Sequence record: ON470608.1
DNA length: 46,651 nt
DNA from: Escherichia phage vB_EcoS-733R5
Strand: one strand, 5' to 3'
Positions within the stretch are counted from its first letter, which is position 1; each line of letters starts with the position of its first letter. This document shows, one piece after another, positions 1,910-46,651 of this stretch. Made by a program: the position numbers and the translations under genes. The notes beneath the pieces were generated by a model. That model saw nothing but the letters and a program-made list of their open reading frames with translations. It ran no database searches and was not told where the DNA came from.

Positions 1910-2277
1910 ACGTTTCCGTCACTGCACACTTTAGAGCCAGATACAGGCAATTTCCTCCTAAAAGTAGGCAGAGGATTAGTACCTTTATCAACGAAGTCAT
2001 GAAAAACGGGTTTGCAAATCTTGAAGGTAGAAATAAGTTTTCCGATGATGTAAGCCCGGATGATCCTGATTTCAGAGCAAAAGTGCAGTTTGTAAACGAG
2101 CATTGCCTTTGGCACTACCATGTCGGCATTCATGATTATGAAATGGATAAGCCTTATGGTGATAGAACATCAATGTTCGTTTTACATTATAAAAGACATA
2201 ATCCTGCGAGCATTAGTGTGAACCACTTATCGCCGCACCCTCCATTCACGTTGCCTACGTTGGAAATGTTTACTTAA
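1891..2277 (+). CDS. Hypothetical protein, third gene of the cargo operon (start uncertain)
   Basis: 128-aa ORF overlapping the preceding gene by 19 nt, suggesting translational coupling; His-rich stretch WHYHVGIHDYE; ends immediately before a strong terminator. Confidence 0.45.
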   Translation: MANGSVDVSVTAHFRARYRQFPPKSRQRISTFINEVMKNGFANLEGRNKFSDDVSPDDPDFRAKVQFVNEHCLWHYHVGIHDYEMDKPYGDRTSMFVLHYKRHNPASISVNHLSPHPPFTLPTLEMFT

Positions 2278-2307
2278 AAAACCAGCCATTTATGGCTGGT
2301 TTTTTTA
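2276..2307. terminator. Bidirectional rho-independent terminator
   Basis: aaaaaaccagccatttatggctggttttttt: a GC stem flanked by an A-run and a T-run, between the convergent + operon and the - strand gene ending at 2342. Confidence 0.7.
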
Positions 2308-2341: not shown

Positions 2342-2668
2342 TTATATAACCGGGCATCCATCATCAGTAGGCCATGCGCGATTGATGTCGAATGTCACCA
2401 CCCCGACAACTGTAACATCATCCAAAGCCTCTCCTTCCAGAGTCTCACCGTCTCTTGTAATAAATGCCCGGCCCATAATTTTTGCAAAATCTGTGCCTCC
2501 GCCGTATTGAATTAAAACGGTATCTCCTTGCTTTGGTTTACCGGAGACATCGACTACGGTGTAACCAGTTTCTGTTTGCACGATCCGAGTATTAGGGCCG
2601 GTACCGCAGAGTTTATCGACGGTAAGCCGTCCTTCCACAAAGTCTGCTGCTGGCGATGGAAAGCCCAC
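2342..2668 (-). CDS. UmuD'-like / peptidase S24-like domain protein, apparently lacking the canonical Ser-Lys dyad
   Basis: N-terminus GFPSPAADFVEGRLTVDKL closely matches the UmuD segment GFPSPAADYVEQRIDLNQL that follows the autocleavage site; the C-terminal VVGVV resembles the S24 beta-core; the SGxSM catalytic motif is not evident. GTG start 2 nt after the upstream stop. Confidence 0.5.
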   Translation of the reverse strand: MGFPSPAADFVEGRLTVDKLCGTGPNTRIVQTETGYTVVDVSGKPKQGDTVLIQYGGGTDFAKIMGRAFITRDGETLEGEALDDVTVVGVVTFDINRAWPTDDGCPVI

Positions 2669-2670
2669 GA

Positions 2671-2910
2671 TTACAGCCCTCCATTTGGGTTGTAAAGCTG
2701 GAACGTGCGATCGTCACCTTCCTGCGTTGAGACGTCGCGGAATGTTGTCACGTAGCCCTCTATCCACTGATTAGCCTGCCGTGGCGACCAGTGCCAGTTA
2801 TATCTCTCCAGTTCCTGCAGAAATCGCCTGGTGGTGAGGATGCGCTTTCCGTTAGGCAGGATATCTATTGCCTTACGGCAGGCCGTCTCGATTTCGTATA
2901 AACGCGGCAT
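2671..2910 (-). CDS. Hypothetical small protein paired upstream of the UmuD'-like gene
   Basis: 79 aa from the ATG preceded by gggggaag; stop is 2 nt before the downstream GTG start; no family recognised. Confidence 0.4.
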   Translation of the reverse strand: MPRLYEIETACRKAIDILPNGKRILTTRRFLQELERYNWHWSPRQANQWIEGYVTTFRDVSTQEGDDRTFQLYNPNGGL

Positions 2911-3048
2911 ACTTCCCCCTGTCAAACTTACTGTATATAAACACAGTAAATGCATGTGTGCAGCAGATCAATATTGGCAGTGGCTATCAATGATCGGCGC
3001 TGACGTAACGCATTGATGCCTCAATTCGACTGGCAACATTGAGCAGGG

Positions 3049-3322: not shown

Positions 3323-3745
3323 TTAGTCCGGTATGTTTCTCGCGCTACTACTGCTTACGTTAACGTCTGGTAATGCTCTAGCGGCGCGACGTAAAGCGGC
3401 GTTGAAAGCAATTATAGTGACCGGCCGGCGATGGTACTTCACACGGTTAGAATGACTCTGAAATAAATAAACATCTTCTGGATAGCGTTCTCTTCTACGA
3501 GCAATCATCGCCTCCACTGGAGGGGTTGATTTAACACGTAGCTCCTTCAGGTGACCCTGTTTTCGTATCAGTATCAAGTCACCATCAATATCATCATATC
3601 GAATACTCAGCAGCCTTCCAGCGCTTAAACCCGTGTGAAAAATTAACGCCCACAAGTCAGCCCATGTATCTGAGATGGAAACAAGATTGCTGTTAATAGT
3701 TAAAAATTGCTCAAAACTTATTGTTTTCTTACCGTTCACGAACAA
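3323..3745 (-). pseudogene. Tyrosine-recombinase-like fragment, apparently truncated before box II
   Basis: 140-aa ORF containing HTGLSAGRLLSIRYDDID (box-I-like); it terminates before any HxxR...Y region and runs directly into repeat copy B. Confidence 0.4.
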
Positions 3746-3822: not shown

Positions 3823-4054
3823 TCAAGTCGCCGGGAGGTACTTGTAGATTGTTTTCACGTCCACGCCTGTCACATCGGCTACCTGCTGCCGGGTTGCGCC
3901 CGTACCCAACATCCTGCGGCATCGCTCCACAACCTCAGTGGTCATTACCCGGCGCCGTCCACCTACTCTCCCCTGCTCCCTCGCTGCGGCTAAACCGGCG
4001 CGGGTACGCTCGACAATCAGCTCTCGTTCCATCTCTGCCATTATCCACAGTCGG
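3823..4054 (-). pseudogene. Serine recombinase (Hin/Gin/Pin-type DNA invertase) C-terminal fragment
   Basis: AEMERELIVERTRAGLAAAREQGRVGGRRR...QQVADVTGVDVKTIYKYL matches the invertase catalytic-domain end plus HTH; the N-terminal ~120 aa are absent; the 3' end is repeat copy C (3838..3882). Confidence 0.7.
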
Positions 4055-4229
4055 TTTTCGCTGTGATCCAGCGCGCTATCGACGAAATACGATTTTTTCC
4101 CGTGCGATCCAGGAATTCGCCTCCACCTCGGATAAGTGGATGCCGCACCGGCGCAGCGCTGACACAAAATCCTTTGTGTGCAGGTATTGAAAACCTTTGG
4201 AGTTGCGCAATACCGACTCGCGGAATGCC

Positions 4230-6183
4230 TGATTGATATCTGACTGACAGTGCATGATCTGCCCTCTGATAAACGTCGCGGTAGGGATACCCGTTACCGG
4301 GTACCCCCCGCACAGATCCCGGCGTGCGCTATTCACGCACCGGGCTCCTGCCTTGGGTGTCTGGCGGTGAACCGCTCCACAGGCCATGGATGCAGAACCC
4401 GAACCTTCGGCAGCCATACGGCTGCCAGTCTGTTTGCTTTCGTCCATGTCGTATCATCCTGCTGGCTCCTGCGCCTCAGCGCCCGTCGCCAGAGGTCTGT
4501 TACGTATATCCTGAACTTCCGCATCATGGGATAGTTGCCCGGGACTGAGTGGTAGTTCAGGTATCCCTGAACCACTCTCCTGAGCCATTTTCCCTGTTCG
4601 GGGATTGAGTAATGCCAGCGCTTTCGTAGTCCGTCCTTGATCGCTTTCAGTGTCGCCGTCATCCTGTCCCGGCGTGTCTTTCGTATCAGCATGAACCTGC
4701 CACTACGATCTTTCCCACTGATATGCGTGAACCCGAGGAAGTTGAACGTTTCTGGTTTACCTTTTCCCCTGCTGGCGCGGTTTTCGGCTGCGAAGCGGCC
4801 GAACTCCGTCAGTCGGGTTTTCTTCGGATGTACCGTGAGTCCGAACTCCTTCAGTCTGCGCTGCATGGCTATACGAAAGCATTGAGCGTCGATTCGCTTG
4901 TCGAACCCGATGACTATGTCATCTGCGTATCTGACCATGACCACATTGCCTGTGGCATGGCGGCGTCGCCACTGATGCGCCCACAGATCGAAGACATAGT
5001 GGAGGTAGATGTTTGCCAGCAGCGGCGAGATAACCGCACCCTGTGGGGTGCCTTCCTCCGATGCCCGCCATTCTCCTTCCTCTGAGGTCCCGGCTGTGAG
5101 CCACTTTCGTATGAGCCTGATTACCCTCTGGTCGCCGATTCTGTGTTCTATGAACCTGATTAGCCATTCATGGCTTACCTTGTCGAAGAACTGACTGATA
5201 TCGGCATCCAGTACCCAGTTTACATTGGTCCGAACCAGCCCTGTGGCCAGTGCGTCCAGCGCATTGTGCTGGTTTCGCCCGGGTCTGAACCCGTATGAAA
5301 ACCCCATAAAGTCATTTTCGTAGACTGCATTCAGGATCTTAACCAGCGCATACTGGACGATTTTGTCCTCCAGTGAGGCGATGCCGAGCGGGCGCTGTTT
5401 TCCATCCGCTTTCGGGATGTAGTGCCGCCTGCCGGGCTGAGCCCTGTAACTACCCTGATGAAGCCTCCGGTGCAGATCTGCTATGTTGACCTTCAGGTTT
5501 TCGGCGTAGTCCTTCCACCTGACACCATCAACTCCGGCAGCCGCTTTCCTGCTCAGGGAGAGGAATGCGTTCTCCAGTGCCTCTGCTGTCAGGAGGTGGA
5601 ACAATGCGGTAAACCGTTCTTTCTTCCGCTGCTTCGCAGCTTCCCGCACGCGTGACAGCCTCTGTGACATACTTTCCCGGCTCTGCGTCCGGCGCATGTG
5701 TGGCTGTTCCGCGTTTCCCTTGGCCCCGCTCCTTCGCTCCACTGACTCCGCTCCTTGCGGATTGTTCGCCAGATTCGCAGCTACTATGAGCGAGTCCGAC
5801 TTCTCCTCTCCGTACATCACCGGCTTCGGCTCCTCGCCTTCCCGGTGCGGGCCATCTCCGGCACTGGCAGATGGTCAGAGGGGAGATCTCCCGGTTCCCG
5901 CGTAAAGATCGTATTGACATGCCAGGGTCTCAGACCCCGCCGGGTCCATATGGCACTCGCAGTAACGCACCCTATGATGTTGCCTTCCGTAAACAGTACA
6001 ACGTCGGCACCCGGGAATTTAATATACATTTCGTGGCTCAATGGCTGGCCTGTCAACACCCCTGTCAACGCTTCGCCCCATACCTCACGGTATACAACGC
6101 ATGACTCGGGGACCCTGTGGATTGCTGGTCCTTCAATGGTCGGGGACTTTCACCCCTTGATCTTTACCGGTCTCCCGGCGCAC
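4230..6183 (-). mobile_element. Group II intron (3' boundary approximate)
   Basis: The minus strand begins GTGCGCCGGGAGACCGG (5' consensus GUGCG) at 6183, contains the RT/maturase ORF, and has a domain-V-like hairpin with a GTAA tetraloop at about 4278..4311. Confidence 0.7.
4333..5820 (-). CDS. Group II intron-encoded reverse transcriptase/maturase (LtrA-like)
   Basis: 495 aa with RT motifs (FxGxxxGxxxSPLLANIYL, YADD active site) followed by a maturase X-like domain. Confidence 0.85.
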   Translation of the reverse strand: MMYGEEKSDSLIVAANLANNPQGAESVERRSGAKGNAEQPHMRRTQSRESMSQRLSRVREAAKQRKKERFTALFHLLTAEALENAFLSLSRKAAAGVDGVRWKDYAENLKVNIADLHRRLHQGSYRAQPGRRHYIPKADGKQRPLGIASLEDKIVQYALVKILNAVYENDFMGFSYGFRPGRNQHNALDALATGLVRTNVNWVLDADISQFFDKVSHEWLIRFIEHRIGDQRVIRLIRKWLTAGTSEEGEWRASEEGTPQGAVISPLLANIYLHYVFDLWAHQWRRRHATGNVVMVRYADDIVIGFDKRIDAQCFRIAMQRRLKEFGLTVHPKKTRLTEFGRFAAENRASRGKGKPETFNFLGFTHISGKDRSGRFMLIRKTRRDRMTATLKAIKDGLRKRWHYSIPEQGKWLRRVVQGYLNYHSVPGNYPMMRKFRIYVTDLWRRALRRRSQQDDTTWTKANRLAAVWLPKVRVLHPWPVERFTARHPRQEPGA

Positions 6184-6252
6184 ACTGTTTTTATATACAG
6201 TAGTTATCGTCGCGAGATCATTCAAGCATTTTTGCCTTCCATGGCGTCAGTG

Positions 6253-36330: not shown

Positions 36331-36397
36331 GGTAACAAAAGGTACATTAAATAGCAAACAACAGTTACAAGGATTCCATGTAACATTGGTTACATGA
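36331..36397. promoter_or_regulatory. Immunity operator region (OR-like)
   Basis: A GGTAACAAAAGGTACAT site at 36331..36348 and the perfect palindrome CATGTAACattgGTTACATG at 36378..36397 overlapping the cI start codon. Confidence 0.55.
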
Positions 36398-37053
36398 AAA
36401 CAGAGATGAAAGACCGAATAAGATCCCGTCGAGTCCAGCTCGACATAACACAGCAGACCCTAGCTAAACGCTTGGGGGTAAGCCGTGTTTCCGTAACAAA
36501 ATGGGAGAGCGGCACTACTAAACCTGATGGTGAGAATCTCCATCAGCTGGCGGTGGCGCTGCAGACAACTCCAGAATGGATTCTTTACGGTCGAGGTGAG
36601 GAAACGCCGGATGATACAAAAGTTATTCCGTTCCTTAAGCCACCCACGGCAGTTCCTATTATCTCCGCTGTTCAAGCTGGGATGTGGACTGATACTTATG
36701 CATGCTCAAGGCTTTCTGATGTGATTTCATGGACGCAAACCACTGCAAACGTTTCTAATGAAGCATTCGGACTGGTAGTTCGCGGGGAGTCTATGACTAA
36801 CCCTCATGGTCTGCCATCCATCCCAGAAGGATCGATCGTTATTGTTGAACCGCACTATGGTCAATTGGATGACCTTTACGGAAAAATTGTAGTGGCAATA
36901 CTCGACGGCTCTGCTGAAGCTACCGTTAAAAAGCTGGTATGGGATAGCCCTTTCGCATACTTGATGCCACTTAACCCTGCCTTTAAACCCATCCCGATAG
37001 ATGGTAATTGCCGGATTGTTGGTAAAGTGGTTCAGATTACCCAAAACATTTAA
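36394..37053 (+). CDS. CI-like repressor (HTH-XRE plus S24 LexA-like peptidase domain)
   Basis: N-terminal HTH (QQTLAKRLGVSRVSVTKWESG) and C-terminal S24 domain with Ser (RGESM) and Lys (VKKL). Confidence 0.85.
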   Translation: MKTEMKDRIRSRRVQLDITQQTLAKRLGVSRVSVTKWESGTTKPDGENLHQLAVALQTTPEWILYGRGEETPDDTKVIPFLKPPTAVPIISAVQAGMWTDTYACSRLSDVISWTQTTANVSNEAFGLVVRGESMTNPHGLPSIPEGSIVIVEPHYGQLDDLYGKIVVAILDGSAEATVKKLVWDSPFAYLMPLNPAFKPIPIDGNCRIVGKVVQITQNI

Positions 37054-42242: not shown

Positions 42243-42317
42243 TAAGTTCTATGTCCCCTTAGTTAAATGGATATAACGAGCCCCTCCTAAGGGCTAATTG
42301 CAGGTTCGATTCCTGCA
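42243..42317 (+). tRNA. argW: tRNA-Arg (anticodon CCU)
   Basis: 75-nt cloverleaf-compatible sequence with a GTCCCCT/AGGGGAC acceptor stem, CCU in the anticodon loop, a GTTCGATTC T-loop and a 3' CCA. Confidence 0.9.
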
Positions 42318-42768
42318 GGGGACACCAGATACCCTTCAAACGAAATCTACCTTCACCCCGTAAAAGATGGGTTTGGCAGCACACTTGCCTTATATCTACT
42401 CATTTTTACTGCAACAGGTTGAAATCTCAGCACTGTCAGAAAGCGCTGATGACTAAACAGCCCTGGGCCGGGCGATGTAACCATCACACAGAATCCTGAT
42501 AGCGAAATATGGCGTGACTCGATACTTCACTCCGCAATGCATTCCTTGATGAATTCGCAGGACCGTGATACACGGGACAGGTCACTGAATGACGACAATG
42601 TCCTGGAAATCAGCGAACCGCGCATCTGAAGTACATTTGAGCGACTGTACCAGAACATGAATGAGGCGTTTGGATTAGGCGATTATTAGCAGGGCTAAGC
42701 ATTTTACTATTATTATTTTCCGGTTGAGGGATATAGAGCTATCGACAACAACCGGAAAAAGTTTACGT

Positions 42769-44016
42769 CTATATTGCTGAAGGTACAGGCGTTTCCATAA
42801 CTATTTGCTCGCGTTTTTTACTCAAGAAGAAAATGCCAAATAGCAACATCAGGCAGACAATACCCGAAATTGCGAAGAAAACTGTCTGGTAGCCTGCGTG
42901 GTCAAAGAGTATCCCAGTCGGCGTTGAAAGCAGCACAATCCCAAGCGAACTGGCAATTTGAAAACCAATCAGAAAGATCGTCGACGACAGGCGCTTATCA
43001 AAGTTTGCCACGCTGTATTTGAAGACGGATATGACACAAAGTGGAACCTCAATGGCATGTAACAACTTCACTAATGAAATAATCCAGGGGTTAACGAACA
43101 GCGCGCAGGAAAGGATACGCAACGCCATAATCACAACTCCGATAAGTAATGCATTTTTTGGCCCTACCCGATTCACAAAGAAAGGAATAATCGCCATGCA
43201 CAGCGCTTCGAGTACCACCTGGAATGAGTTGAGATAACCATACAGGCGCGTTCCTACATCGTGTGATTCGAATAAACCTGCATAAAAGACAGGAAAAAGT
43301 TGTTGATCAAAAATGTTATAGAAAGACCACGTCCCCACAATAAATATGACGAAAACCCAGAAGTTTCGATCCTTGAAAACTGCGATAAAATCCTCTTTTT
43401 TTACCCCTCCCGCATCTGCCGCTACGCACTGGTGATCCTTATCTTTAAAACGCATGTTGATCATCATAAATACAGCGCCAAATAGCGAGACCAACCAGAA
43501 GTTGATATGGGGACTGATACTAAAAAATATGCCGGCAAAGAACGCGCCAATAGCATAGCCAAAAGATCCCCAGGCGCGCGCTGTTCCATATTCGAAATGA
43601 AAATTTCGCGCCATTTTTTCGGTGAAGCTATCAAGCAAACCGCATCCCGCCAGATACCCCAAGCCAAAAAATAGCGCCCCCAGAATTAGACCTACAGAAA
43701 AATTGCTTTGCAGTAACGGTTCATAAACGTAAATCATAAACGGTCCGGTCAAGACCAGGATGAAACTCATACACCAGATGAGCGGTTTCTTCAGACCGAG
43801 TTTATCCTGAACGATGCCGTAGAACATCATAAATAGAATGCTGGTAAACTGGTTGACCGAATAAAGTGTACCTAATTCCGTCCCTGTCAACCCTAGATGT
43901 CCTTTCAGCCAAATAGCGTATAACGACCACCACAGCGACCAGGAAATAAAAAAGAGAAATGAGTAACTGGATGCAAAACGATAGTACGCATTTCTGAATG
44001 GAATATTCAGTGCCAT
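42769..44016 (-). CDS. cscB: Sucrose:H+ symporter (LacY-like MFS permease)
   Basis: 415 aa with 12 predicted TM helices; LacY-like N-terminus; adjacent to cscK and cscA. Confidence 0.8.
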   Translation of the reverse strand: MALNIPFRNAYYRFASSYSFLFFISWSLWWSLYAIWLKGHLGLTGTELGTLYSVNQFTSILFMMFYGIVQDKLGLKKPLIWCMSFILVLTGPFMIYVYEPLLQSNFSVGLILGALFFGLGYLAGCGLLDSFTEKMARNFHFEYGTARAWGSFGYAIGAFFAGIFFSISPHINFWLVSLFGAVFMMINMRFKDKDHQCVAADAGGVKKEDFIAVFKDRNFWVFVIFIVGTWSFYNIFDQQLFPVFYAGLFESHDVGTRLYGYLNSFQVVLEALCMAIIPFFVNRVGPKNALLIGVVIMALRILSCALFVNPWIISLVKLLHAIEVPLCVISVFKYSVANFDKRLSSTIFLIGFQIASSLGIVLLSTPTGILFDHAGYQTVFFAISGIVCLMLLFGIFFLSKKREQIVMETPVPSAI

Positions 44017-44087
44017 AATTACCTGCCTGTCGTTAAAAAATTCACGTCCTATTTAGAGATAAGAGCGACTTCGCCGTTTACTTCTCA

Positions 44088-45002
44088 CTATTCCAGTTCT
44101 TGTCGACATGGCAGCGCTGTCATTGCCCCTTTCGCCGTTACTGCAAGCGCTCCGCAACGTTGAGCGAGATCGATAATTCGTCGCATTTCTCTCTCATCTG
44201 TAGATAATCCCGTAGAGGACAGACCTGTGAGTAACCCGGCAACGAACGCATCTCCCGCCCCCGTGCTATCGACACAATTCACAGACATTCCAGCAAAATG
44301 GTGAACTTGTCCTCGATAACAGACCACCACACCTTCTGCACCTTTAGTCACCAACAGCATGGCGATCTCATACTCTTTTGCCAGGGCGCATATATCCCGA
44401 TCGTTCTGTGTTTTTCCACTGATAAGTCGCCATTCTTCTTCCGAGAGCTTGACGACATCCGCCAGTTGTAGCGCCTGCCGCAAACACAAGCGGAGCAAAT
44501 GCTCGTCTTGCCATAGATCTTCACGAATATTAGGATCGAAGCTGACAAAACCTCCGGCATGCCGGATCGCCGTCATCGCAGTAAATGCGCTGGTACGCGA
44601 AGGCTCGGCAGACAACGCAATTGAACAGAGATGTAACCATTCGCCATGTCGCCAGCAGGGCAAGTCTGTCGTCTCTAAAAAAAGATCGGCACTGGGGCGG
44701 ACCATAAACGTAAATGAACGTTCCCCTTGATCGTTCAGATCGACAAGCACCGTGGATGTCCGGTGCCATTCATCTTGCTTCAGATACGTGATATCGACTC
44801 CCTCAGTTAGCAGCGTTCTTTGCATTAACGCACCAAAAGGATCATCCCCCACCCGACCTATAAACCCACTTGTTCCGCCTAATCTGGCGATTCCCACCGC
44901 AACGTTAGCTGGCGCGCCGCCAGGACAAGGCAGTAGGCGCCCGTCTGATTCTGGCAAGAGATCTACGACCGCATCCCCTAAAACCCATACTTTGGCTGAC
45001 AT
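44088..45002 (-). CDS. cscK: Fructokinase (ROK/pfkB-like sugar kinase)
   Basis: 304 aa with VLGDAVVD and GAGDAF sugar-kinase motifs. Confidence 0.8.
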   Translation of the reverse strand: MSAKVWVLGDAVVDLLPESDGRLLPCPGGAPANVAVGIARLGGTSGFIGRVGDDPFGALMQRTLLTEGVDITYLKQDEWHRTSTVLVDLNDQGERSFTFMVRPSADLFLETTDLPCWRHGEWLHLCSIALSAEPSRTSAFTAMTAIRHAGGFVSFDPNIREDLWQDEHLLRLCLRQALQLADVVKLSEEEWRLISGKTQNDRDICALAKEYEIAMLLVTKGAEGVVVCYRGQVHHFAGMSVNCVDSTGAGDAFVAGLLTGLSSTGLSTDEREMRRIIDLAQRCGALAVTAKGAMTALPCRQELE

Positions 45003-45107
45003 TTTTTTCCCTTAAATTCATCTGAGTTACGCATAGTGATAAACCTCTTTTTCGCAAAATCGTCATGGATTTACTAAAACATGCATATTCGATCACAAAA
45101 CGTCATA

Positions 45108-45183
45108 GTTAACGTTAACATTTGTGATATTCATCGCATTTATGAAAGTAAGGGACTTTATTTTTATAAAAGTTAACGTTAAC
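45108..45183. promoter_or_regulatory. Divergent csc promoter region with two GTTAACGTTAAC palindromes (candidate CscR operators)
   Basis: Perfect 12-bp palindromes at 45108..45119 and 45172..45183 in the AT-rich cscK/cscA intergenic region. Confidence 0.5.
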
Positions 45184-45217
45184 AATTCACCAAATTTGCT
45201 TAACCAGGATGATTAAA

Positions 45218-46651
45218 ATGACGCAATCTCGATTGCATGCGGCGCAAAACGCCCTAGCAAAACTTCATGAGCACCGGGGTAACACTTTCTATCCCCATTT
45301 TCACCTCGCGCCTCCTGCCGGGTGGATGAACGATCCAAACGGCCTGATCTGGTTTAACGATCGTTATCACGCGTTTTATCAACATCATCCGATGAGCGAA
45401 CACTGGGGGCCAATGCACTGGGGACATGCCACCAGCGACGATATGATCCACTGGCAGCATGAGCCTATTGCGTTAGCGCCAGGAGACGATAATGACAAAG
45501 ACGGGTGTTTTTCAGGTAGTGCTGTCGATGACAATGGTGTCCTCTCACTTATCTACACCGGACACGTCTGGCTCGATGGTGCAGGTAATGACGATGCAAT
45601 TCGCGAAGTACAATGTCTGGCTACCAGTCGGGATGGTATTCATTTCGAGAAACAGGGTGTGATCCTCACTCCACCAGAAGGAATCATGCACTTCCGCGAT
45701 CCTAAAGTGTGGCGTGAAGCCGACACATGGTGGATGGTAGTCGGGGCGAAAGATCCAGGCAACACGGGGCAGATCCTGCTTTATCGCGGCAGTTCGTTGC
45801 GTGAATGGACCTTCGATCGCGTACTGGCCCACGCTGATGCGGGTGAAAGCTATATGTGGGAATGTCCGGACTTTTTCAGCCTTGGCGATCAGCATTATCT
45901 GATGTTTTCCCCGCAGGGAATGAATGCCGAGGGATACAGTTACCGAAATCGCTTTCAAAGTGGCGTAATACCCGGAATGTGGTCGCCAGGACGACTTTTT
46001 GCACAATCCGGGCATTTTACTGAACTTGATAACGGGCATGACTTTTATGCACCACAAAGCTTTTTAGCGAAGGATGGTCGGCGTATTGTTATCGGCTGGA
46101 TGGATATGTGGGAATCGCCAATGCCCTCAAAACGTGAAGGATGGGCAGGCTGCATGACGCTGGCGCGCGAGCTATCAGAGAGCAATGGCAAACTTCTACA
46201 ACGCCCGGTACACGAAGCTGAGTCGTTACGCCAGCAGCATCAATCTGTCTCTCCCCGCACAATCAGCAATAAATATGTTTTGCAGGAAAACGCGCAAGCA
46301 GTTGAGATTCAGTTGCAGTGGGCGCTGAAGAACAGTGATGCCGAACATTACGGATTACAGCTCGGCACTGGAATGCGGCTGTATATTGATAACCAATCTG
46401 AGCGACTTGTTTTGTGGCGGTATTACCCACACGAGAATTTAGACGGCTACCGTAGTATTCCCCTCCCGCAGCGTGACACGCTCGCCCTAAGGATATTTAT
46501 CGATACATCATCCGTGGAAGTATTTATTAACGACGGGGAAGCGGTGATGAGTAGTCGAATCTATCCGCAGCCAGAAGAACGGGAACTGTCGCTTTATGCC
46601 TCCCACGGAGTGGCTGTGCTGCAACATGGAGCACTCTGGCTACTGGGTTAA
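45218..46651 (+). CDS. cscA: Sucrose-6-phosphate hydrolase / invertase (GH32)
   Basis: WMNDPNG and FRDP motifs with an EC catalytic pair (MWECPDF); agga SD 9 nt before the MTQSRL start. Confidence 0.85.
   Translation: MTQSRLHAAQNALAKLHEHRGNTFYPHFHLAPPAGWMNDPNGLIWFNDRYHAFYQHHPMSEHWGPMHWGHATSDDMIHWQHEPIALAPGDDNDKDGCFSGSAVDDNGVLSLIYTGHVWLDGAGNDDAIREVQCLATSRDGIHFEKQGVILTPPEGIMHFRDPKVWREADTWWMVVGAKDPGNTGQILLYRGSSLREWTFDRVLAHADAGESYMWECPDFFSLGDQHYLMFSPQGMNAEGYSYRNRFQSGVIPGMWSPGRLFAQSGHFTELDNGHDFYAPQSFLAKDGRRIVIGWMDMWESPMPSKREGWAGCMTLARELSESNGKLLQRPVHEAESLRQQHQSVSPRTISNKYVLQENAQAVEIQLQWALKNSDAEHYGLQLGTGMRLYIDNQSERLVLWRYYPHENLDGYRSIPLPQRDTLALRIFIDTSSVEVFINDGEAVMSSRIYPQPEERELSLYASHGVAVLQHGALWLLG

Follow-up and report, generated by a model that had tools for sequence, protein, structure and literature searches.

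A putative LexA-controlled cassette encoding a short HumD/UmuD'-type protein and a predicted winged-helix-like partner in an Escherichia prophage

Introduction

The closest described counterpart of the protein analyzed here appears to be HumD of phage P1, whose properties are reportedly those given in a 1999 study by McLenigan, which we cite second-hand. The protein in question has 108 amino acids (aa), resembles UmuD', the self-cleaved subunit of DNA polymerase V (Pol V), and is encoded directly downstream of a 79-aa gene in the record of Escherichia phage vB_EcoS-733R5 (ON470608.1), a stretch of 46,651 nucleotides (nt) that was analyzed over its whole length and is called the window below. 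HumD is described in PMC7092418 as a shorter form of UmuD that is activated already and supports SOS mutagenesis, and in the work cited there substitution for UmuD' in UmuC-dependent SOS mutagenesis appears to be known for P1 HumD only. In a published AlphaFold model of Pol V, one UmuD' arm lies beside the UmuC active site and touches the palm, the little finger and the UmuC C-terminus (PMC11791011). According to work cited in the same paper, UmuD' without the arm is inactive and a change of a single N-terminal residue matters.

In the present analysis, the two genes of the window were compared with these systems using profile searches, structure prediction and a comparison of related loci. 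We assign a probability of roughly 0.5 to the reading that the 108-aa protein is an SOS-induced, orphan, pre-activated subunit of the HumD/UmuD' type that acts on the host UmuC (Pol V).

Results

Translation starts of the two genes

The gene of the 108-aa protein is located at positions 2342..2668 of the minus strand, starts with GTG, belongs to phrog_3469 and ends with the HumD-type tail DDGCPVI. Upstream of the GTG, the same frame meets a stop codon 15 codons away, and no ATG, GTG or TTG is present in between, so that an N-terminal extension of the protein is impossible and it must begin with M-GFPSPAADF. When this N-terminus (MGFPSPAADF) is aligned with UmuD (25-GFPSPAADY), the start corresponds to Gly25, the first residue of UmuD after cleavage, as already proposed in the initial annotation of this DNA. 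A Gly at position 2 is the standard context for removal of the initiator Met, after which the mature N-terminus should equal Gly25 of UmuD'.

Many UmuD'-like database entries are 122-123 aa long, a length that could be taken to mean that the gene is an ordinary full-length umuD with a mis-called start, or the decayed remnant of one, the latter also raised in the initial annotation. The first version does not agree with the lack of any upstream start codon and with the stop 15 codons away. Moreover, the Klebsiella entries of 122-123 aa (P0001, P0004, P0039 and others) proved to have mis-called starts themselves, since the extra 'MSARSSYTTRTEGYN' of their 15-residue extension results from reading through the 3' part of the preceding gene (...ERTFQLYNPNGGL) in a different frame. 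Considered together with the selection data given below, which bear on the remnant, this explanation is scarcely credible and can be regarded as refuted.

The upstream gene, at positions 2671..2910 of the minus strand, starts with ATG and encodes a protein of phrog_3893 (MPRLYEIE...NPNGGL) that is predicted to be small and winged-helix-like. A 94-aa version of this gene, annotated in ON470622 (43696-43980) from an ATG further upstream and extending to position 2955, was rejected as an over-extension across the LexA box described below; 36 of 36 aligned homologues start with MPR. The TAA stop codon of the 79-aa gene and the GTG start codon of the 108-aa gene are separated by 2 nt, and the Shine-Dalgarno sequence GGAGGG of the latter (2677-2682, minus strand) is located within the last codons of the former (...NGGL), 8 nt upstream of the GTG. 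The two genes are probably translationally coupled. The proposal that they are co-transcribed was supported as well, and both open reading frames (ORFs) were confirmed at the proposed positions.

Family and predicted fold of the 108-aa protein

In order to place the 108-aa protein, its sequence and the profile of its family were compared with those of UmuD and HumD. A phmmer search against the PDB retrieved UmuD' (E 6e-4), and hhalign aligned the family profile with UmuD over 64 columns (96% probability, E 1.6e-9) and with P1 HumD over residues 1-108 to 1-129 (probability 98.4%, E 6e-15). The match to phrog_3469, which PHROGs already names 'UmuD-like protein', has an E-value of 3.7e-46 and covers residues 1-103 against profile positions 1-103 of 106; this family name, the LexA box with its promoter and the precedent of P1 HumD were all missing from the initial annotation. 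The C-terminal tail ...INRA...DDGCPVI is common to P1 HumD, N15 gp26 and HK140 gp28 and is not found in UmuD; the pattern specific for HumD-type tails can be written as IN.A...DD.CPV[IM]. An AlphaFold2 model of the protein has a mean predicted local distance difference test (pLDDT) score of 73.8, with values of 80-90 in the core. The top 20 PDB matches of this model in a Foldseek search are UmuD', LexA C-terminal domains and lambda CI C-terminal domains, with probabilities up to 1.0 and template modelling (TM) scores of 0.4-0.58, and the best match is UmuD'. The protein is thus predicted to have an S24 beta-barrel fold. On the basis of the full-length alignment with P1 HumD, the shared tail and the S24/UmuD' fold, the family is best read as a shortened branch of the phage HumD lineage, with P1 HumD as its closest relative.

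The shortening affects the region of the catalytic Ser. A deletion of 11-12 residues at the Ser60 loop is agreed by all three alignments (hhalign with UmuD, hhalign with HumD, and MAFFT). In the hhalign alignment with UmuD, T37 is placed under S60 and is followed by a 12-residue gap, and most homologues have Ala or Val at the T37 position; in the other two, the Ser region falls inside the deletion. The initial annotation was therefore right that no Ser nucleophile is present, but its view that SGKPK stands in the place of the SGxSM motif could not be kept, because SGKPK (residues 42-46) aligns with UmuD 76-SAITAS-81 and not with SGDSM. K63, which aligns with UmuD K97, is kept in at least 90% of the close relatives, and Thr, Val or Gly are found instead in sister sub-branches. 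Full-length HumD-type proteins vary too, with Ser, Thr, Ala, Met, Tyr or Gly at the Ser position and Lys, Arg, Trp or Cys at the Lys position. Such variation is as expected if catalysis becomes dispensable once a protein is born cleaved, and the sequences point to the loss of the dyad as a lineage-wide consequence of birth in the 'cleaved' form. In line with its start at the Gly, the 108-aa protein has neither an internal Ala/Cys-Gly cleavage site nor a preceding N-terminal domain. Of all segments, the arm, GFPSPAxDYxE.R(I/L), is the one best conserved between UmuD, HumD-type and short-type proteins.

Promoter and terminator of the cassette

A LexA (SOS) box, TACTGTGTTTATATACAGTA, is located at positions 2929..2948 of the minus strand, 19 nt upstream of the start codon of the 79-aa gene, and agrees with the consensus TACTGTATATATATACAGTA at 18 of 20 positions. 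Its left half is at the same time the -10 hexamer TACTGT (2943-2948, minus strand), which overlaps the SOS box and is preceded, with a 17-nt spacer, by the -35 hexamer TTGATC (2966..2971, minus strand). The core CTGT-N8-ACAG at 2931-2946 is one of only two in 46.6 kb (0.49 expected), and both sites of the window (2931-2946 and 6185-6200) precede members of the 79-aa family. Among related promoters, TTGAYN and TACTGT are 17 nt apart in 71 cases and 18 nt apart in 15. The operon is closed by a bidirectional intrinsic terminator (2276..2305), consisting of an A-run, a 13-bp stem and a T-run, which is located 37 nt past the stop codon of the 108-aa gene and also closes a convergent 128-aa ORF.

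For the comparison of promoters and gene order, we collected 80 loci from IMG/VR (out of more than 551 confirmed matches), 62 from GTDB genomes and five from reference phages, and searched the ORFs of all loci with hidden Markov models built from the two family alignments. An exact CTGT-N8-ACAG at -20 to -60 of the first gene was found in 94 of the 115 loci of the short type (100-112 aa), the equivalent box being at -30 to -41, and in 15 of the 23 loci with a gene of HumD length (120-132 aa). Equivalent LexA boxes were also observed in mEp390, HK140, N15, P1 and an Erwinia phage, and the P1 record annotates the same arrangement as the LexA site for humD. At least four short-type loci have no LexA box nearby; in these, the box is found 1.9 kb upstream, separated from the genes by a group II intron. 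The position of the box and its recurrence are consistent with LexA control of the cassette in vivo.

A further conserved element, TTGATAGC, was identified at positions 2983..2990 of the minus strand, about 21 nt upstream of the -35 hexamer TTGATC and 43-44 nt upstream of the CTGT of the LexA box, and it represents a candidate operator or UP-like element. The corresponding pattern T[TCA][GA]ATAG[CGT] is present in 54 of 94 unique promoters of loci with the 79-aa gene and in 1 of 35 loci without it, against a background of 0.03 per 110 nt, and its distance to the LexA CTGT is 43-44 nt in 47 of 50 cases. The element may be an operator for the predicted winged-helix protein; alternatively, promoter and gene may occur together because they descend from a common ancestor.

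Two observations concern the SOS box in other loci. In two IMG/VR loci, L012 and L015, unrelated sequence has taken the place of the left half of the LexA box, some 30-40 nt before the start codon of the 79-aa gene (...GGGAAGACCC^ATATAAAAACAGTA), which suggests a further insertion or a rearrangement breakpoint inside the SOS box. Homologues of dinI are present in about 10 loci and are often divergent from the LexA box of the cassette, for example in mEp390 (L002, 2409-2675) and HK140 (L004, 1907-2173) and in about 8 further loci, so that a single operator serves two genes, one for a modulator of RecA* filaments and one, on its opposite side, for a pre-cleaved UmuD' analogue. No dinI is found in the window.

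Conservation of the gene pair

The 79-aa gene is located directly upstream of the UmuD'-like gene in 90 of the 115 short-type loci and in 12 of the 23 loci with HumD-length genes, which means that it also precedes full-length HumD-type genes; HK140 gp27/gp28 is such a pair with a HumD-length second gene, whereas P1 and N15 have no 79-aa partner gene. In 100 of 104 pairs the intergenic gap is -1, 0, +1 or +2 nt, and as this spacing, and hence the relative frame, varies, a programmed frameshift fusion of the two ORFs was rejected. The gene order is kept in hundreds of homologues, and the pair is far more than a chance arrangement. A linked umuC was searched for with tblastn in 142 loci, and none was found adjacent to the cassette, except for one chance case of a host umuDC beside a prophage end.

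The UmuD'-like gene has a median pairwise dN/dS (ratio of nonsynonymous to synonymous substitution rates) of 0.12 over 790 pairs, and the 79-aa gene one of 0.18 over 724 pairs. Both genes are under purifying selection. These values also bear on the decayed umuD remnant mentioned above. The missing Ser and the absence of a Pfam S24 match could be read as signs of decay, but such a low dN/dS and the presence of more than 100 intact loci in many genera, all with the same start, are not those of a remnant.

The family is widespread, with more than 550 IMG/VR matches and 235 protein clusters at 90% identity. The cassette is present in 63 GenBank phage records, mostly of Klebsiella, and at chromosomal sites in 48 of 5426 complete E. 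coli genomes, where the genes are named 'hypothetical protein', 'S24/S26 family peptidase' or 'DNA polymerase V'. Many prophages of Klebsiella, Enterobacter, Raoultella, Pantoea and Erwinia also carry the family.

The 79-aa partner

To our knowledge, the 79-aa partner has never been studied before. The protein is a member of phrog_3893, a PHROG of unknown function, and has no Pfam or NCBIfam match at E <= 1, the DinI family included. Its AlphaFold2 model (pLDDT 82.6) has the topology H-E-E-H-H-E-E, in which the order H1-S1-H2-H3-S2-S3 of the winged-helix fold can be recognized, and the protein is predicted to be small and winged-helix-like. A profile search of 1.84 billion representatives retrieved about 190 relatives, which are small and stand alone, without any informative domain fusion; a single 912-aa match was discarded as a repetitive, unrelated protein. 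Similarly, phmmer against the PDB gave only spurious summed matches to designed WD40 repeats, caused by the 15-residue string DDRTFQLYNPNGG. Two C-terminal variants of the protein (...TTFRDVSTQEGDDRTFQLYNPNGGL and ...PDFADKTTDGSDNRYWILRNMGRVF) are paired with the same UmuD'-like variants. It is important to mention that RefSeq names many members of this family 'DNA polymerase V', which is a mislabel without detectable basis, and that in mEp390 (NC_019721, L002) the 79-aa gene at 2762-3001 is unannotated, a wrong-strand 42-aa ORF (gp25) having been called instead.

The 79-aa protein is a facultative partner. Its most likely role is that of a DNA-binding or adaptor accessory, and it could possibly act at TTGATAGC in its own promoter. 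A more specific arrangement can be envisaged, in which a winged-helix binder and an S24-fold dimerisation module that begins at the cleavage-site Gly mimic the halves of a LexA/CI-type repressor and associate non-covalently as a split LexA-like regulator of late-SOS transcription, for example at TTGATAGC. The winged-helix fold of the 79-aa model, the tight coupling of the genes in nearly all pairs and the near confinement of the upstream element to loci with the 79-aa gene would fit such a regulator. We nevertheless regard it as quite improbable.

Genomic setting and the prophage repressor

In reverse complement, the window is 100% identical to GenBank ON470622.1 (Escherichia phage vB_EcoS-716R3), and window coordinates are obtained by subtracting the ON470622.1 coordinate from 46651. 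Both ORFs of the cassette are annotated as 'hypothetical protein' in that record. Host DNA is present at both ends of the window, namely yfdC (1-933) on one side and tRNA-Arg(CCT) with sucrose (csc) genes (42253-46651) on the other, and the integrase gene and tRNA-Arg(CCT) are located at the end opposite yfdC. In view of the host DNA at both ends, the window is an integrated prophage at an argW-type tRNA site rather than a packaged genome. The cassette lies in an accessory region, with the tail genes on one side and the end of the element next to yfdC on the other, and is at the attR-side end of a lambdoid-type prophage. A plasmid origin was rejected, as megablast against PLSDB gave no match.

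The predicted control by LexA, the position at a prophage end and the S24 fold are all reminiscent of the LexA-controlled antirepressor modules carried by phages 186 and Gifsy, and the 108-aa protein could accordingly be imagined as an SOS-controlled antirepressor, or as a modulator of the prophage CI or the host LexA that heterodimerises with their S24 domains. The prophage CI (36394-37053) keeps a VQAG (Ala-Gly) site, GESM and TVKKL and should cleave itself, so that it needs no antirepressor. An antirepressor for a non-cleavable CI, of the type of 186 Tum, Gifsy or N15 AntC, was rejected for this reason, and the interference with the prophage CI proposed in the initial annotation found no support. 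In addition, the same cassette is present in phages with different immunity regions, and no homology to known antirepressors was detected. We consider such a role highly improbable.

Several neighbouring genes were also analyzed. Three small plus-strand ORFs (98, 81 and 128 aa) are located at 1347-2277, between the cassette terminator and yfdC, and converge on the bidirectional terminator 2276-2305. None of them has a Pfam, NCBIfam or PADLOC match, and only the 128-aa ORF matches a PHROG (phrog_5954, unknown function, E 9e-13). Just upstream of the cassette, a 140-aa ORF (3323-3745, minus strand) represents a truncated or miniaturised integrase-like gene. Its similarity is confined to the catalytic part at the C-terminus of tyrosine integrases (phrog_1, E 7e-9), its match to Pfam Phage_integrase (E 0.05) is below the threshold, and its own PHROG is phrog_19751.

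A group II intron and a second cassette remnant

The second LexA box of the window (6185-6200) is directly followed by a group II intron of 1909 nt (4275-6183, minus strand; Rfam RF02005, group-II-D1D4-6, 184 bits), with a reverse transcriptase ORF at 4333-5820. The intron is inserted directly after base 19 of the box (...TACTGTATATAAAAACAGT^GTGCGCC) and thus lies in the 5' untranslated region of an SOS-controlled transcript. The identical insertion point (...AAACAGT^GTGCGCC) was found in five other loci (L059, L073, L080, L081 and L082), and the intron of L073 is inverted and occupies the other arm of the palindrome. Judged from these insertion points, the intron lineage appears to home to the SOS box, and the intron itself would be SOS-induced. 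No publication on group II introns at SOS boxes was found in a literature search.

Downstream of the intron, a second cassette remnant (3823-4255, minus strand) can be recognized, in which the leader GTTTATCAGAGGGCAGATCATG is followed by a truncated paralogue of the 79-aa gene. This paralogue of 59 codons (4076-4255, MHCQSDINQAF..., phrog_3893 E 1.8e-21) breaks off into a fragment from the C-terminus of a serine recombinase of the Pin/resolvase type (3823-4032, in an ORF extending to 4167), and no UmuD'-like gene is left in the remnant.

Discussion

A proposed pre-activated subunit for the host polymerase

The reading that we prefer, that of a pre-activated HumD/UmuD'-type subunit, can be formulated as follows. 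DNA damage would inactivate LexA and thereby free the promoter, in which one half of the SOS box serves as the -10 hexamer. From a single transcript, the winged-helix-like 79-aa protein and, by coupled translation, the 108-aa orphan UmuD' analogue of the P1 HumD lineage would be produced. Once the initiator Met is removed, the latter would display the GFPSPAxD(Y/F) arm that is exposed in UmuD by RecA*-mediated self-cleavage, and would be 'pre-activated' in the sense that it needs neither RecA* nor a protease site of its own. Such pre-activation would explain the deletion of the Ser loop and the only partial conservation of the Lys. The most likely target would be a host Y-family polymerase of the UmuC type, with the conserved arm docking beside its active site, and in this way the phage could take over, accelerate or modulate Pol V-type translesion synthesis while replicating its damaged genome after induction. 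Binding to UmuC is proposed here by analogy with UmuD' and HumD.

Several points weigh against this reading. The 108-aa protein has no match to Pfam Peptidase_S24 (PF00717) even at E <= 1. The HumD equivalog model NF051876 scores 32.9 bits against a cut-off of 120 bits and matches residues 1-28 only, the UmuD model NF007621 scores 24.5 bits against a cut-off of 110 bits and matches residues 2-41 only, and the AlphaFold2 model is only moderately confident, with low values at both termini. In addition, the Pol V model mentioned above places the C-terminal carboxylate of UmuC on S36/T71/K73/E69 of UmuD' (PMC11791011), which after conversion of the numbering (Gly25 being residue 1) correspond to S60/T95/K97/E93 of UmuD. 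With the S60 loop deleted, and the Lys replaced in some sub-branches, productive assembly of the mutasome is doubtful. Finally, no necessary role is given to the 79-aa partner. None of the 108-aa, 79-aa or neighbouring proteins was matched by PADLOC.

The same structural comparison suggests an opposite direction of effect, namely that the protein is a dominant-negative decoy that binds the host UmuC or UmuD/UmuD' through its arm and dimer surface and cannot complete the mutasome. Pol V mutagenesis or the UmuD2C checkpoint would then be suppressed during induction, to the benefit of the fidelity or the speed of phage genome replication. The Ser60 loop, which is deleted, and the Lys97 equivalent, which is variable, are the sites at which the C-terminus of UmuC is bound in the published model; moreover, the core is about 21 residues shorter than that of HumD, and several relatives have a divergent dinI, a further SOS damper, under the control of the same LexA box. 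On the other hand, HumD, the closest characterised relative, activates mutagenesis, and the occurrence of full-length HumD-type genes at the same genomic site, next to the same partner, points to a common function. We consider such a decoy, the main rival of the preferred reading, to be unlikely. A wider and equally tentative version starts from the observation that the arm is kept and the cleft for the UmuC C-terminus (the Ser60 loop) is lost, and proposes an SOS-timed decoy or re-targeting factor for a host Y-family polymerase, with the winged-helix partner binding TTGATAGC or damaged DNA; if true, the cassette would be a phage module for anti-mutagenesis or for hijacking translesion synthesis, built like a LexA split at its cleavage site. 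For the preferred reading as well, the effect on translesion synthesis could be either activation or inhibition.

Implications

The concept of HumD and the PHROGs label 'UmuD-like protein' existed already. What is added here is a distinct and widespread short branch without the Ser loop, its conserved SOS promoter, and its frequent coupling to an uncharacterised winged-helix-like protein that also accompanies full-length HumD-type genes. Pre-activated UmuD' analogues are of interest because with them a mobile element would bypass the RecA*-dependent delay that times error-prone synthesis. If the short forms activate or block the host Pol V, lysogeny would alter damage-induced mutation rates, including those induced by antibiotics, in clinically important Enterobacterales. 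Furthermore, the family offers a natural experiment on the parts of UmuD' that are needed without self-cleavage: it has retained the arm, the terminal strand and the acidic tail, and the Ser loop has disappeared.

Comparison with known systems

The two products together resemble LexA and lambda CI repressors, as they correspond to a winged-helix N-terminal and an S24 C-terminal module split at the cleavage-site Gly. They differ from these repressors in being separate polypeptides, encoded in different frames with variable spacing that makes a fusion impossible, and in lacking the catalytic dyad; no sequence similarity was detected between the 79-aa protein and the LexA N-terminal domain. Operons of the impCAB type and phage dinI genes also have a small LexA-controlled gene directly upstream of or divergent from a UmuD-like gene, whereas in the present cassette the small protein has no DinI match and is a predicted winged helix, and no polymerase gene follows.

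With E. coli UmuD', the S24 subunit of Pol V, the 108-aa protein shares the N-terminal arm, the predicted S24 beta-barrel, the terminal V.GVV strand and a Lys that aligns with K97. Unlike UmuD', it is not made by self-cleavage, has no Ser60, is not in an operon with umuC, and carries an extra acidic Cys-Pro tail. In comparison with UmuD, it has no N-terminal 24-residue domain and consequently no beta-clamp or ClpXP degron motifs.

The greatest similarity is to P1 HumD and its relatives N15 gp26, phiKO2 gp23 and HK140 gp28 (NF051876). The protein of the window is shorter than these (108 aa against about 129), owing in part to the deletion over the Ser60-loop region, and its segment before the last strand is shorter and different (ITRDGEAIEGEALDD). 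In common with them, it is a phage-borne orphan UmuD' analogue that starts at the cleavage-site Gly (MGFPSPAxDY in HumD), has a LexA box about 35 nt upstream and no linked umuC, and ends with the HumD-type tail. In lambdoid and N15-like phages the HumD genes occupy the same kind of slot, after the tail-fibre gene and by attP or the end of the element, and in HK140 gp28 is likewise preceded by a gene of the 79-aa family.

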